A DNA stretch of 64,000 nucleotides from Escherichia phage Lw1: sequence record KC801932. One strand, given 5' to 3'. This document shows, in pieces, positions 39,096 through 62,354 of the stretch. Position 1 is the first letter of the stretch, and each line of letters begins with the position of its first letter. Below the pieces are notes generated by a model. The model was given only the letters and a program-made list of their open reading frames with translations, searched no databases and was not told where the DNA came from. Both the position numbers and the translations under genes were made by a program.

Positions 39096-39138
39096 TTTAG
39101 ATCCTAAATATAGTAAACATTAGATAGGGGAAATTACA

Positions 39139-39693
39139 ATGTTGTTCTCATTCTTCCCGCCTGTTGATTATAAAGGCACACCAACTACTGATATCTACCG
39201 CGATTATCGTTTTTACTTCAATCGCGTAATCAGGAATTATAAGCCCCGCACATATCAACTGACAGGATCATTAAGACCTGAACAATTAGCGGAAACGCTA
39301 TACGGAAACCAACAATACTACTGGGTTATCCTGATGCTCAATGATAATTACGATCCGTTCTATGGATGGATTACAGATCAGGAAACCGCTTATCAATGCG
39401 CTGTTCAGCGTTATTCGAAAGTAGGTGGTGAGCAAGTTCTTTACCATATGGACGGACAAAGCAACCGTTATTATAACCTGGTTGAAGATCCGACTAACCC
39501 CGGTCATTGGTATGACAAGGGTGATAAAGATATGCGTTATTTGCAGTATCAGGGAACTTTAGTCCCTGTAGATATTTATGAAGATGCCGTGTTGCAAAAT
39601 GAAGCACTTCGTACCATTAAAATTATCAATCCCTCTGATATTCAATCGTTTGTAAGCGATTATATCAAGGAAATGGAAAAGGCGAACACATGA
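39139..39693 (+). CDS. 53: baseplate wedge subunit gp53
   Basis: MLF.FF.P..Y...TDI.R.Y..YF.R, NDNYDP.YGWIT.QE.AYQ, YDKGDK, collinear with recalled T4 gp53. Confidence 0.85.
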   Translation: MLFSFFPPVDYKGTPTTDIYRDYRFYFNRVIRNYKPRTYQLTGSLRPEQLAETLYGNQQYYWVILMLNDNYDPFYGWITDQETAYQCAVQRYSKVGGEQVLYHMDGQSNRYYNLVEDPTNPGHWYDKGDKDMRYLQYQGTLVPVDIYEDAVLQNEALRTIKIINPSDIQSFVSDYIKEMEKANT

Positions 39694-41456
39694 GATACGG
39701 TGGAAATGCAAACTCCCCGTTTTTTGATGGGGTTGTTGAAGAAGTTGATGACCCGTTATTTCTGGGACGGGTTCGGGTTCGCGTATTTGGTGAACACCCA
39801 GCACAGAAACAGAAATCTGAAACTATCGGTATTCCTGTTGAGGAATTGCCGTGGATGGTTCCTATCCAGAACATCACCAGCGCTGCTGTATCAGGAGTTG
39901 GGTTCTCTCCGACTGGTATCGTAAGAGGTAGCTTTGTATTCGGCGTATGGCGCGATAAATGGCATCAGGACGGCGTTATACTGGGAACCTATGCAGGGCA
40001 GTATGTTGAGAAGCCCGACACTCAGAAAGGCTTCTGTGACCCGTTTGGTGAGTATCCCCGCTACGTTGGTAACGATGTCAACGTATTGGCTCGTGGTGGT
40101 GTAGAAGGTAGGACATCAAGTAGTGTTGTTATCCGTGATGCAAACAGTTCATTGGCAGTAAACCCAGACGATCGCCCACTGGACGAAATACCGGAAGATA
40201 ACCGACCGGACACTGGCGGTTTCACCATTGAAACAATGATCAAGCAGGATGAAGGTATTCGGTTGACGTGGTATTATGATGTTAAAGGTTATACAATCGG
40301 GATTGGACACTTTTTCTTAACCGCTCCACAAGGTACAGATCCGGCAGTTGTTAACGCAGCGTTATCTAAACAAATTGGTAGAACTGTTACTGGTGTTCCT
40401 GGATCAATCACAGCAGAAGAAGCGGGCGTTTTATTTCAGCAAGATTTAGCTAAAGTTCATAGAGATATTCAGAATAATAGCAAAGTTCGTGAAGTATATC
40501 ATGATCTTAACCGTCCGCGCCAGATGGCTATTGAAAACATGTGCTTTCAGATGGGTGTTGGTGGTGTAGCAAAATTTACAAATGCTCTGGCTGCTATGAA
40601 GAGTCAGGACTGGCAAACCGCCTACAACGAACTGAGAAACTCAACATGGGCTAACCAGACACCAGGACGTTCTTCACGCGTATCTAAAATCGTGCTGACC
40701 GGAAACCTTGAATCATATGGTGTTATGGTTCCAGATCCAGAAGGAAGAAGCCTAAGCGCTGCTTATAACGCTGTAGTTCTGCAAGCCAGTAACCCAGAAG
40801 ACCCTTTTGTTCCTGGTGATACCCGTGTAATGTTCGAGGAACCAAAATCTGCATACGCTGCTGAATATCCTTACAATATGGTGTTTGAATCTCGTTCGGG
40901 ACATATTCAAGAATTCGACGATACACCAGGATTTGAACGTTATAACCGCGTTCACCCGGCAGGGACATATGAAGAAATTCGTCCTGATGGAAGCCGTGTC
41001 GTAAAAATTATGGGTGATGATTATCAGATTGTTATGCAGGGCAGGAAACTGAACGTTAAAGGCAATTTGCAAGTGGTAGTCGAAGGTGATGCGTTCATTT
41101 ACAATATGGGTAACGTTCAACAGACTGTTGATGGAAACGTAACTGAGTTCGTGCGCGGTAACGTAAACCAGACTGTCGAGGGTGAATATGTGGGACGCGT
41201 AAAAGGTAACGCAGAATTAACCGTCGAAAAAGATGCTACTATAAACGTGGATCAGAATTTAATGGCTAACGTTAAACAGAATGCAACTGTTAACGTAACC
41301 GAAGATGCAACTGTTACCGCAAAAAATGCGATGATGGATATTGAACAAGACTTCGATTTAAACGCGAACAATATCACAATGGTTGCCCGACAAAATACAT
41401 TAATAGATTCCGGTTCTCTGACTAAGATAACTGGTGGAACAGTCCAGGTAGGTTAA
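39690..41456 (+). CDS. 5: baseplate central spike / tail lysozyme gp5
   Basis: N-terminal OB domain (LGRVRVRVFGEH), T4-lysozyme-type domain (GYTIGIGHF), C-terminal beta-helix VxGxxxxxVEG repeats. Confidence 0.9.
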   Translation: MRYGGNANSPFFDGVVEEVDDPLFLGRVRVRVFGEHPAQKQKSETIGIPVEELPWMVPIQNITSAAVSGVGFSPTGIVRGSFVFGVWRDKWHQDGVILGTYAGQYVEKPDTQKGFCDPFGEYPRYVGNDVNVLARGGVEGRTSSSVVIRDANSSLAVNPDDRPLDEIPEDNRPDTGGFTIETMIKQDEGIRLTWYYDVKGYTIGIGHFFLTAPQGTDPAVVNAALSKQIGRTVTGVPGSITAEEAGVLFQQDLAKVHRDIQNNSKVREVYHDLNRPRQMAIENMCFQMGVGGVAKFTNALAAMKSQDWQTAYNELRNSTWANQTPGRSSRVSKIVLTGNLESYGVMVPDPEGRSLSAAYNAVVLQASNPEDPFVPGDTRVMFEEPKSAYAAEYPYNMVFESRSGHIQEFDDTPGFERYNRVHPAGTYEEIRPDGSRVVKIMGDDYQIVMQGRKLNVKGNLQVVVEGDAFIYNMGNVQQTVDGNVTEFVRGNVNQTVEGEYVGRVKGNAELTVEKDATINVDQNLMANVKQNATVNVTEDATVTAKNAMMDIEQDFDLNANNITMVARQNTLIDSGSLTKITGGTVQVG

Positions 41457-41458
41457 TC

Positions 41459-59996: not shown

Positions 59997-60538
59997 GAAT
60001 GAATGATAAACTGAACTTACAAGAACTGTTGAATATTGATGCTCTCCCAGGCGGCGTTGAGTCTGGGGAGGATGTCGTTGTTTATGAAAAACTGGAACTT
60101 AAACCAGTTGAATCACATCCGGCAGACAGAAAACCGGACTTAGAAGAGGATTATAGCCTCGCGCGTACTACGGCGCACTACATGAATCAGATGATCATGG
60201 ATATGGCTGAAATCGCTTTGCATAACGCGAAGAACTCCGAATCACCGAGACACGTCGAAGTGTTCACAAGCCTGATGAACCAGTTAAACGTTTCAAACAT
60301 CGGTCTGATGAAGATTCACAAAGAAATGCGCGAAATCACCGAAGAGAAGACTACTACATCGTCGAAAGAAAGTAAAGGCGGTGAAATGAATATCGAAAAC
60401 GCAACCGTTTTTGTCGGATCACCAACTGAACTGATGCAAAAATATGGTAGTGCCTACGAACCAAAAGAGGGCTTCATAGATGGTGAAGTCGTAGAGGTAA
60501 ATAATGATGGAAATGGAACCGACGATCGATCCGAGTAA
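59993..60538 (+). CDS. 16: terminase small subunit gp16
   Basis: [35 protein letters not shown] collinear with recalled T4 gp16. Confidence 0.85.
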
Positions 60539-62336
60539 GGAATCAGATCACCCTATAGGGCTAATGAACCCCCAGTATCTGAAACGAAAAATTGATGAAG
60601 CGGGGATGGAATGGATTCAAAGCCAGCACGATAATAAATGGTATCCGTATACATTCAGTGATTATCTGAAAGTAAACGCTATTCATAAAGTTGATTTACA
60701 ATCAACAGATCGTACTAAGTTTGCAACATATAAAGACAAGACAAATAAACGAGGTCGATATAACGGAAACCCCAACTTAAAACGCGCTTTCGTCCAAACT
60801 AAATGGACGCAACAGATGCTTATCGAGTGGGTTAAATGTCGCGATGATATCGTTTATTTTGCAGAAACATATTGTGCTATCACCCACATTGACTACGGTA
60901 CAATCAAAGTACAGTTGCGTGACTATCAGAAAGAAATGCTGATCGAAATGCACAAAAACCGTATGGTTGCCTGTAACCTGTCTCGTCAGTTGGGTAAAAC
61001 AACCGTTGTTGCTATCTTCCTAGCGCACTTCGTGTGCTTCAACGAGGATAAATTCGTCGGTGTTCTGGCGCATAAAGCGTCTATGTCTGCGGAAGTTCTC
61101 GACCGTACCAAACAAGCGATCGAACTGTTGCCTGATTTCCTGCAACCAGGGATCGTTGAATGGAACAAAGGTTCTATCGAACTGGACAACAAATGTAAAA
61201 TCGGTGCATTTGCATCTTCACCTGATGCTGTCCGTGGTAACTCCTTCGCAATGATCTATATTGATGAATGTGCGTTTATCCCGAATTTCCAGGATGCGTG
61301 GTTAGCGATTCAACCAGTAATCTCTTCTGGTCGTAAGTCTAAAATCCTTATCACAACGACTCCTAACGGGCTTAACCACTTCTATGATATCTGGAACGCT
61401 GCGGTAGAAGGAAAATCCGGCTTCGTGCCGTACACGGCGATTTGGACATCAGTTAAAGAACGATTGTACACTGACGGTGATGACGGCGTATTCGATGACG
61501 GTTATTCGTGGTCTGCGAAGATGATCGCTGGCTCCAGCAAAGAAGCATTCCTACAGGAACACTGTGCGGAATTTATGGGTACAAACGGAACCCTGATTTC
61601 TGGCTGGAAACTGTCTAAAATGTCATGGATTGATATTGATGAAACTGAAACAAACTTTTATCAGTATAAGAAGCCGATAGAAGGGCATAAATACGTTGCA
61701 GTGCTTGATCCAGCCGAAGGGCGCGGTCAGGACTATCACGCGATGCACATCATCGATATTAGCGCGATGCCGTTTGAACAGGTTGCAGTTTATCACTCTA
61801 ACAGAACATCGCACCTTATTTTGCCTGATATCCTGTTACGTTATCTGAATATGTATAACGAAGCATGGATTTATATTGAGCTAAATAGCACAGGGCATTC
61901 AGTTGCTAAATCTCTGTTTTCCGAACTGGAATATGAGAATGTTATTTGCGACAGCTACAACGATCTGGGTATGAAGCAGACCAAACGTTCTAAAGCGATG
62001 GGTTGCTCAACATTAAAAGACCTGATCGAGAAAGATAAACTGATCATAAATAACAAAAAGACAATACTCGAATTTCGTACTTTCTCAGAAAAAGGCGTTT
62101 CGTGGGCTGCGGAAGAAGGGTTTCATGACGATCTCGTTATGTCTCTTGCTTGTTTCGGTTGGCTTACTACTCAAATGAAATTTGCCGAATTCTGCGAAAA
62201 AGACGATTTAAGACTAGCCAATGAAGTTTTTGCACGGGAACGCGAACAGCTATACGAAGACGCATTGTGTCCGGTTATCGTTACTAGCGGTGATGAAACG
62301 ATTTCGGTTGGTTCTCACGGTATTTCGTTTATATAA
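60504..62336 (+). CDS. 17: terminase large subunit gp17
   Basis: long identical blocks with recalled T4 gp17 ([90 protein letters not shown]). Confidence 0.95.
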
Positions 62337-62354
62337 ATTAGAGGAAATTCTATA

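Follow-up and report, generated by a model that had tools for sequence, protein, structure and literature searches.

Short AT-rich motifs precede the late genes in a 64,000-nt stretch of the genome of Escherichia phage Lw1 (sequence record KC801932; the whole stretch is called the window below). They are very probably T4-type late promoters relaxed at positions -13 and -12, as used in the RB16/RB43 group of phages, in which (A/C)TAAATA, and rarely GTAAATA, would be read by the sigma-like factor gp55. The motifs occupy defined positions, are conserved among relatives, exchange A for C at orthologous sites and are placed non-randomly with respect to genes. Only one textbook promoter is visible in 23 kb, as a consensus looser in this clade than the strict T4 octamer TATAAATA would explain. 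A first-pass annotation, made from the sequence alone, had listed one exact octamer and several variants, and had proposed either that the consensus is relaxed or that several late genes rely on transcription from upstream; every motif it named is present at its place, and both alternatives are supported. The CTAAATA sites before gene 53, gene 7 and the insert that follows gene 14 behave as evolutionary equivalents of ATAAATA sites, and most genes of the cluster lack a spacer motif and overlap or abut their neighbours.

The T4 motif lies at -13 to -6 (PMC1524935). The element proposed for the clade would be shorter and looser, with a TAAATA core from -11 to -6, a -12 position that is mostly A, about one quarter C and in a few cases G, and a free -13 position. 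As at T4-type late promoters, recognition would fall to host RNA polymerase equipped with gp55 and assisted by gp33 and the gp45 sliding clamp, and transcription is predicted to start about 6 nt after the core.

Spacer sites before genes 53, 6, 7 and 15

Over its whole length (39-62.4 kb), the late cluster shows 85-90% identity and the same gene order as the RB16/RB43 group (genus Pseudotevenvirus), the relatives at this level being RB16, RB43, Miller and Cronuts; no near-identical database record spanning the whole region was found. Eight genomes were compared, namely the window, five phages with 82-90% identity to it (RB16, RB43, Miller, Cronuts and Taquito) and two more distant phages that share its gene order, Klebsiella phage Roth88 (~74%), whose record carries no classification and which resembles Slopekvirus phages, and Pantoea phage Phynn (~71%). 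In the four motif-bearing spacers, (A/C)TAAATA is the sole block common to all eight genomes, down to 71-74% overall identity. The TAAATA core (-11 to -6) is invariant at the sites of genes 53, 6, 7 and 15, the sequence upstream of the motifs is not conserved, and no conserved -35 element is present. The leaders predicted for genes 53, 6, 7 and the insert or gene 15 are 15-49 nt long and carry a Shine-Dalgarno (SD) sequence.

The candidate late promoter of gene 53 is CCTAAATA at 39103-39110 (+ strand), with a predicted start at ~39116 and a 23-nt leader that includes the SD. It had been noted in the overlapping form CTAAATAT (39104-39111), which stands 28 nt upstream of the gene 53 ATG (39139). 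Within this spacer, ATCCTAAATA is invariant in all eight genomes, Roth88 and Phynn included, the flanks vary, and T4 carries TATAAATA 29 nt before its own gene 53. The gene 6 site is TATAAATA at 43527-43534 (+), overlapping the stop codon of a 690-aa open reading frame (ORF690) and with a predicted start at ~43540; as had been reported, it is the sole exact copy on either strand within 39096-62339 and lies exactly 20 nt upstream of the gene 6 ATG (43555). RB43 and Miller share TATAAATA with the window at this site, and RB16, Cronuts, Taquito, Roth88 and Phynn have ACTAAATA. Before gene 7, CCTAAATA at 45506-45513 (+; predicted start ~45519) overlaps the second CTAAATAT (45507-45514), 34 nt upstream of the ATG (45548). 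The same aligned columns hold GCTAAATA in the five Pseudotevenvirus relatives and TATAAATA in Roth88 and Phynn.

The fourth site, CCTAAATA at 58385-58392 (+), overlaps the gene 14 stop codon and precedes an endonuclease insert, where it had been read as CTAAATAG (58386-58393). RB43, Miller and Phynn also have CCTAAATA there, and RB16, Cronuts, Taquito and Roth88 have CATAAATA; the window and RB16 thus differ at -12 although they are 96.5% identical over that segment. Roth88 lacks the endonuclease insert, and its copy of the site stands immediately before gene 15; the site would therefore be the ancestral gene 15 promoter, behind which the insert landed, and T4 has AATAAATA 36 nt before its gene 15. 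The start formerly given for the insert, ATG 58399, was discarded, as a promoter at 58385 would leave it a leaderless mRNA; the in-frame ATG at 58447 is more likely, as the SD AAGAGG stands 10 nt before it and RB16 is annotated with this start. The positions of the gene 53, 15 and 18 sites correspond to T4 late promoters, and the occurrence of both A and C at such orthologous sites indicates that the two bases are interchangeable at -12. Candidate sigma-70 promoters were also considered: a scan gave no match at the motif sites, and the sole nearby match (62328-62356) has its -10 element on the gene 18 ATG.

Two hairpins lie close to the 58385 site. The first (58401-58424), after the start predicted for this promoter, is conserved even in insert-less Roth88; the second, CCUCUUCGAAGAGG (58423-58436), pairs the endonuclease SD AAGAGG, and the two fold together (58401-58437) at -18.9 kcal/mol (z = -3.5).

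Conservation by itself does not identify the level at which a sequence acts, and conserved hairpins following several sites (58401-58424 and that of the endolysin gene, described below) suggest RNA-level control nearby. The (A/C)TAAATA blocks might on these grounds be a signal for RNA processing or stability, a translational operator in the 5' leaders or the site of some other DNA-binding protein. We consider this quite improbable, given that the blocks stand at known T4 late promoter positions (53, 15 and 18), that both their invariant TAAATA core and its spacing from the SD and ATG are as in T4, and that they are specific to the upstream regions of late genes and to the sense strand (14 sense copies within the + strand late genes vs 1 antisense). 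No T4 RNA signal is known to have the sequence (A/C)TAAATA. A promoter function remains the preferred reading of the conserved blocks.

Frequency and placement of the motif

The placement of the motifs and their conservation across relatives are far above chance, and their raw counts are not. In the window, TATAAATA occurs 6 times vs 3.25 expected, a number reached in 10 of 100 shuffles, CTAAATA 6 times vs 8.27 and ATAAATA 16 times vs 13.96; plain over-representation was rejected, all three counts falling within the shuffled range. Placement was assessed without recourse to annotation, a copy being scored as placed when it was followed within 10-75 nt by an SD and the start of an ORF with its frame closing just upstream; the background was 3.9% of positions, and P values are binomial. 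CTAAATA was placed in 6 of 12 copies in RB16 (P=2.6e-6) and in 3 of 6 in the window (P=0.001), ATAAATA in 14 of 37 (P=5e-11) and 4 of 16 (P=0.003), and GTAAATA in 6 of 17 (P=3e-5) and 2 of 5 (P=0.014), respectively. For TTAAATA, the corresponding figures were 1 of 11 and 0 of 3, neither of which is significant.

The RB16 genome (165 kb) has 11 of its 12 CTAAATA copies on the + strand, and in 7 of the 12 a gene start (28, 57A, 53, endonuclease/6, 7, inh or t) follows at a distance of 20-70 nt; among the 22 placed RB16 sites, the base at -12 is A in 16 and C in 6. In addition to those before genes 53, 7 and the insert, a fourth CTAAATA of the window, within CCTAAATA at 35519-35526, is its only minus-strand copy; it lies inside gene 1, ~65 nt upstream of the start of gene 57A, and is kept in the five Pseudotevenvirus genomes compared. 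Under a simple first-order Markov expectation with a control of same-composition hexamers, which ignores coding constraint and makes the figures indicative only, the late half of the window holds 20 copies of (A/C)TAAATA vs 10.4 expected and 3 of (G/T)TAAATA vs 12.3, and the early half (1-35150) holds 7 copies of TAAATA vs 26 (observed/expected 0.27). TAAATA is the most depleted of 15 such hexamers in the early half and stands at expectation in the late half; its early depletion fits an avoidance of stray late promoters.

Counts no higher than in shuffled sequence would be expected if the CTAAATA motifs were chance near-matches and genes 53, 7 and 15-17 were expressed only by read-through from the few (T/A)ATAAATA promoters. 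Most genes of the cluster are clearly co-transcribed, and a hidden Markov model (HMM) search of RB43 in 2006 did not return these sites, both of which would suit that explanation. It is nevertheless very unlikely: gene 53 heads a divergent unit with no other upstream motif, and its own is invariant in eight genomes while the flanks diverge; the gene 7 motif sits after a strong terminator; ATAAATA occurs at the same aligned positions in relatives and in T4; and the RB16 placement of CTAAATA has the low probability given above.

The HMM search in question, seeded with T4 sites, yielded 27 predicted late promoters for RB43, and its authors reported CTAAATA only for Aeh1, C being rare at -12 in the other four phages (Nolan et al., 2006; PMC1524935). 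The RB43 list includes (T/A)ATAAATA sites for genes 3, ORF200w, 2, 6 and 20, which match sites found here in the same phage group, and omits the CTAAATA sites before genes 53, 7, 15 and 57A, though RB43 has them at 105899, 112306, 125185 and 102476. For T4, 32 of 50 late sites are perfect, 9 differ only by A at -13 and the rest mostly show single deviations; a 2010 review describes the T4 consensus as tightly kept and mentions Aeh1 as the sole variant (PMC2988020). A literature search for CTAAATA as a late promoter returned only Nolan et al. (2006), one with the octamer strings only unrelated primer matches, and no subsequent account of such sites in the clade was found.

The motifs resemble T4 late promoters in their invariant TAAATA core, in the lack of a -35 element, in the distance to the SD and start codon and in the genes served; gp55, gp33 and gp45 are annotated in the close relative RB16. 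The motifs differ at -12, which is almost always A in T4, whereas about a quarter of the placed sites in the clade have C and a few have G, and at -13, which is free in the clade and most commonly C in the window. The predicted late promoter of Aeh1 likewise has CTAAATA from -12 upstream of T4 late-gene orthologs (PMC1524935; PMC2988020), as do four placed sites of the window (57A, 53, 7 and insert/15) and seven of RB16. In Aeh1, however, C is a strong determinant and -13 is A or G, while the clade mixes A, C and G at -12, even at one orthologous site, and all C(-12) sites of the window have C at -13.

Predicted transcription units and motif copies within genes

The gene order of the window follows that of RB16. 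Genes 57B, 57A, 1 and 3 lie on the minus strand; a plus-strand gene without assigned function (36932-37717) separates gene 3 from genes 2 and 4, again on the minus strand; and genes 53, 5, ORF690, 6-12, wac, 13, 14, the endonuclease insert, 15, 16, 17 and 18 follow on the plus strand. The motif at 39103 would serve genes 53, 5 and ORF690, that at 43527 gene 6, in a unit ending in a terminator, that at 45506 genes 7 through wac, and that at 58385 the endonuclease insert and genes 15-17.

Gene 6 is followed by an intrinsic terminator (45473-45498, +), which lies directly upstream of the gene 7 motif and consists of an 11-bp stem followed by a T run, with a minimum free energy (MFE) of -18.1 kcal/mol (z = -4.96) and a stem conserved in all relatives. 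With so strong a terminator directly upstream, read-through from the gene 6 promoter cannot easily replace the gene 7 motif. Genes 5, ORF690, 8-12, wac, 16 and 17 either overlap the adjacent genes or directly adjoin them; having no spacer motif, they would be read from upstream or internal promoters. A terminator-like hairpin (56682-56701, +; MFE -14 kcal/mol, z = -2.7) stands between wac and gene 13, and no + strand TAAATA core was found between 53886 and 58385, so that no motif precedes genes 13-14; these appear to depend on read-through or distant promoters, as they appear to do in T4. In the scheme proposed, genes without a spacer promoter would be co-transcribed, and the motif copies in genes 9, 10, possibly 12, and 17, together with one antisense to gene 53, are candidate internal promoters.

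Eight copies of (A/C)TAAATA lie inside aligned late genes, and six of them are unchanged in all the relatives. Of comparable AT-rich control 7-mers taken from these genes, 2-20% are invariant, the product of the six background rates being ~4e-6; look-alike sequences (NNTAAATT and G/T variants), which served as further controls, are for the most part not conserved. In gene 9, the 7-mer of CATAAATA at 49957-49964 (+) is invariant in 8/8 genomes vs a background of 8%. A second candidate, ACTAAATA at 52201-52208 (+) in gene 10, lies 110 nt before gene 11, might serve genes 11-12 and is likewise invariant in 8/8 (background 6.6%). The gene 12 copy, AATAAATA at 53886-53893 (+), is a weaker candidate, kept in 7/8 genomes (Roth88 has ACAAATA), with 0/77 control 7-mers invariant in that gene. 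On the opposite strand, CATAAATA at 39573-39580 (-), antisense within gene 53 and invariant in 8/8 (background 9.5%), is a candidate late promoter for gene 4 (start 39095, minus); the 43-nt spacer between genes 4 and 53 contains no minus-strand motif, and T4 has TATAAATA there.

RB43 was left out of the gene 6 codon alignment, its conserved ATG being out of frame with the annotated end. In this record (compared segment 9560-9621), the gene is annotated from a start ~60 nt beyond the ATG that all relatives share, which points to an indel or sequencing error close to its 5' end. A further observation concerns GTTAAATA at 48527-48534 (+), in gene 7 and 97 nt before gene 8, which is invariant in 8/8 genomes and is the sole conserved copy with T at -12.

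The site before gene 18, TATAAATT at 62332-62339 (+), was correctly located by the first-pass annotation; it overlaps the gene 17 stop codon, 15 nt before the ATG at 62355, and is invariant in 7 genomes. It is the positional ortholog of T4 P18, T4 having TATAAATA on the gene 17 stop codon and a leader 12 nt longer than that of the clade; its function is uncertain. With the T4 spacing, its start falls at 62345, the last base of the SD AGAGGA (62340-62345), leaving a leader of ~10 nt without an SD. On this account it is doubtful as a working gene 18 promoter and is regarded simply as the positional counterpart of T4 P18; the motif could be a remnant, could start transcription elsewhere or could give a poorly translated mRNA. 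Three motifs within gene 17, 300-670 nt upstream, are candidate promoters from which gene 18 would receive a full-length leader: CATAAATA at 61686-61693, GCTAAATA at 61880-61887 and CATAAATA at 62045-62052 (all +), each unchanged in 7 genomes. With ~20% of AT-rich 7-mers in gene 17 being invariant, a high background, each of these copies taken alone is weak evidence.

Further motifs lie upstream of 39096. Gene 2 has AATAAATA at 38625-38632 (-), 18 nt before its ATG and kept in RB43, Miller, Cronuts and Taquito; gene 3 has CATAAATA at 36683-36690 (-), 21 nt before its ATG, where RB43 has TATAAATA. Both are putative late promoters of these genes. AATAAATA at 36886-36893 (+) is indeed present 38 nt before ATG 36932, as the first-pass annotation had it, but outside the 39096-62339 range to which it had been assigned; it is kept in five Pseudotevenvirus genomes, Phynn has TCTAAATA, and the RB43 counterpart was among the 2006 predictions. 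The description of the gene behind it (36932-37717) as an internal-protein gene was not borne out, the product having no Pfam match and belonging to PHROG 7322, of unknown function. Measured against the T4 octamer, the sites at 43527, 38625, 36886 and 36683 conform to TATAAATA or the AATAAATA type, with A at -12; those at 39103, 45506, 58385 and 35519 depart from it by C at -12 and -13, and that at 62332 by T at -6.

ORF690 (41459-43531, +), between genes 5 and 6, stands in place of T4 genes 5.1-5.4; its family is PHROG 5296, of unknown function, its matches to tape-measure families are weak, and its Roth88 ortholog is annotated as a tape measure. Endonuclease genes repeatedly sit just downstream of putative late promoters: the window insert behind that of gene 15, and genes of RB16 behind that of gene 6 (ACTAAATA) and behind TATAAATA before gene 24 (compared segments 6033-6057 and 6700-6774). 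A plus-strand homing-endonuclease gene (26313-27083; PHROG 314) lies inside the minus-strand early region of the window, has no RB16 counterpart and is preceded, 131 nt upstream, by an exact TATAAATA (26174-26181).

Proposed reading of the -12 base by gp55

The genes for gp55, gp33 and gp45 are present in the RB16 annotation and lie outside the 64-kb window. In the T4 cryo-electron microscopy structure, gp55 receives three flipped non-template bases, those at -12, -9 and -8, in its pockets; the pocket that takes A(-12) is deep, and the base stacks there on Y97 (PMC7892883). RB16 gp55 is 52% identical to that of T4 and keeps N13, L54, R57, F86 and Y97. Both RB16 and the Slopekvirus phage VAC13 have NVYGYINK as the loop surrounding Y97, where T4 has NPHAYITQ, and an NPHAYI-type loop (followed by T/S and Q/R/M) is common to T4, an RB49-like phage, 44RR, KVP40 and Aeh1. 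The altered loop is specific to the lineage, goes together with the tolerance of C at -12 and may plausibly be its cause. In Aeh1, gp55 (41% identical to T4) keeps the loop as NPHAYIS and differs at F54 and H57, whereas RB16 has a loop of its own; as the differences fall in different places, the Aeh1 and Pseudotevenvirus lineages probably reached C tolerance differently. The RB16 annotation also has uvsX directly adjoining gene 43, while in T4 the two are separated by the gene 42/beta-gt block. The RB16 arrangement is consistent with unmodified cytosine, and it may be speculated that this makes C(-12) sterically acceptable.

G at -12 seems to be tolerated as well, as two sites suggest, on weaker evidence than for C. 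From RB16 to Roth88, the divergent spacer between genes 27 and 28 (58400-58440 in RB16, outside the window) keeps an unchanged 21-nt block, CTATTTACTAAATAGTAAATA, in which ACTAAATA and AGTAAATA face gene 28 and AGTAAATA is the sole motif facing gene 27. The other is CGTAAATA at 22641-22648 (-), a possible G(-12) variant 40 nt before the endolysin gene, which reads the same in RB16 and Taquito and is CATAAATA in Roth88. The motif overlaps a conserved 12-bp hairpin on its 5' arm, and a T run stands behind the hairpin (22600-22650, minus; MFE -15.9 kcal/mol, z = -3.5); a late transcript starting 6 nt after the motif would begin inside the stem and therefore could not form the hairpin. McPheeters et al. 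are said to have described, in 1986, the late promoter of the T4 lysozyme gene e inside a hairpin that affects early transcripts. The endolysin motif resembles that case in its position on the 5' arm of a conserved hairpin and differs in that its hairpin leaves the SD free, has a T run after it and is terminator-like for upstream transcription rather than a block to translation, as well as in G(-12). Separately, the early region has four copies of CGTAAATA, all on the minus strand (13987, 15496, 19346 and 22641) and none on the plus strand; two copies lie 40-50 nt upstream of gene starts, and one lies at the stop of a lipoprotein gene, before a terminator. They may be G(-12) late promoters or a coincidence.

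In RB16, TATAAATA tends to precede high-copy genes (19, 20, 22, hoc, 34 and 37), and the C(-12) sites precede baseplate (53, 6, 7 and 28), chaperone and lysis genes, with 57A, inh and holin t among those served. This clustering of C sites on low-copy products might mean that C(-12) and G(-12) sites form a separate temporal class, read by a different specificity factor or form of the polymerase, or it might merely reflect promoter strength. A separate class is most unlikely, as an orthologous site flips between A and C among close relatives (the gene 15 site in the window vs RB16) and no second gp55-like gene was seen in the 165 kb RB16 annotation examined. Recognition of all these sites by gp55 is accordingly the preferred reading, and a more specific version of it, possible if rather doubtful, would run as follows. 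In the Pseudotevenvirus/Slopekvirus/Phynn lineage, the -12 pocket of gp55 would take A, C and sometimes G, and not T, through the NVYGYINK loop; the base at -12 would grade promoter strength, with C at low-copy baseplate, chaperone and lysis genes and TA at high-copy tail, head and fibre genes; and synonymous sites in genes 9, 10, 17 and 53 would be fixed to preserve internal promoters.

The gene 10 copy bears on this proposal. A 17-nt sequence, TACACTAAATACCGTGA, is identical between the window (52198-52214) and T4 (16281-16297 of the compared segment), stands at orthologous codons of gene 10, ~100-110 nt before gene 11, and is shared by phages whose gp10 proteins are only 49% identical. T4 may accordingly have a C(-12) late promoter in gene 10, and, if the synonymous sites are indeed fixed to preserve internal promoters, the shared TACACTAAATACCGTGA would imply that T4 gp55 also uses a C(-12) site.

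Several points weigh against relaxed gp55-dependent promoters and against the loop as the source of the tolerance. The element holds only ~13 bits of information, and CTAAATA and ATAAATA occur at chance level in the window, where the composition figures are, as said, indicative. Some of the placed or conserved copies, those inside the highly conserved gene 17 above all, could reflect protein-coding constraint. The T4-pocket residues L54, R57, F86 and Y97 are unchanged in RB16, which leaves the loop a hypothetical cause; the loop was read from RB16, the window phage's own gp55 gene lying outside the window; and, with ACTAAATA present in T4 gene 10 itself, C tolerance may not be specific to the clade. 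Start-site, RNA-seq or in vitro data for the RB43-like clade were looked for in the searchable literature and not found.

Relaxed late promoters would be an ordinary, under-annotated and previously overlooked feature of the RB16/RB43 group. Searches for TATAAATA would miss at least a quarter of the late promoters in RB43/RB16-like phages, in Slopekvirus and in related therapeutic phages of Klebsiella, Enterobacter and Cronobacter, and operon maps would be wrong as a result, since the missed sites include those of essential baseplate genes; a search for VTAAATA 15-60 nt before an SD and start codon would recover them. The base flipped by T4 gp55 into its deep pocket is that at -12, which corresponds to the almost invariant A(-11) of sigma-70 promoters. 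If a natural gp55 takes either A or C at this position and differs in a known loop, it would offer a direct handle on how a minimal sigma factor reads its key base, and naturally graded late promoters may be useful parts for tuning expression in engineered T4-like phages.

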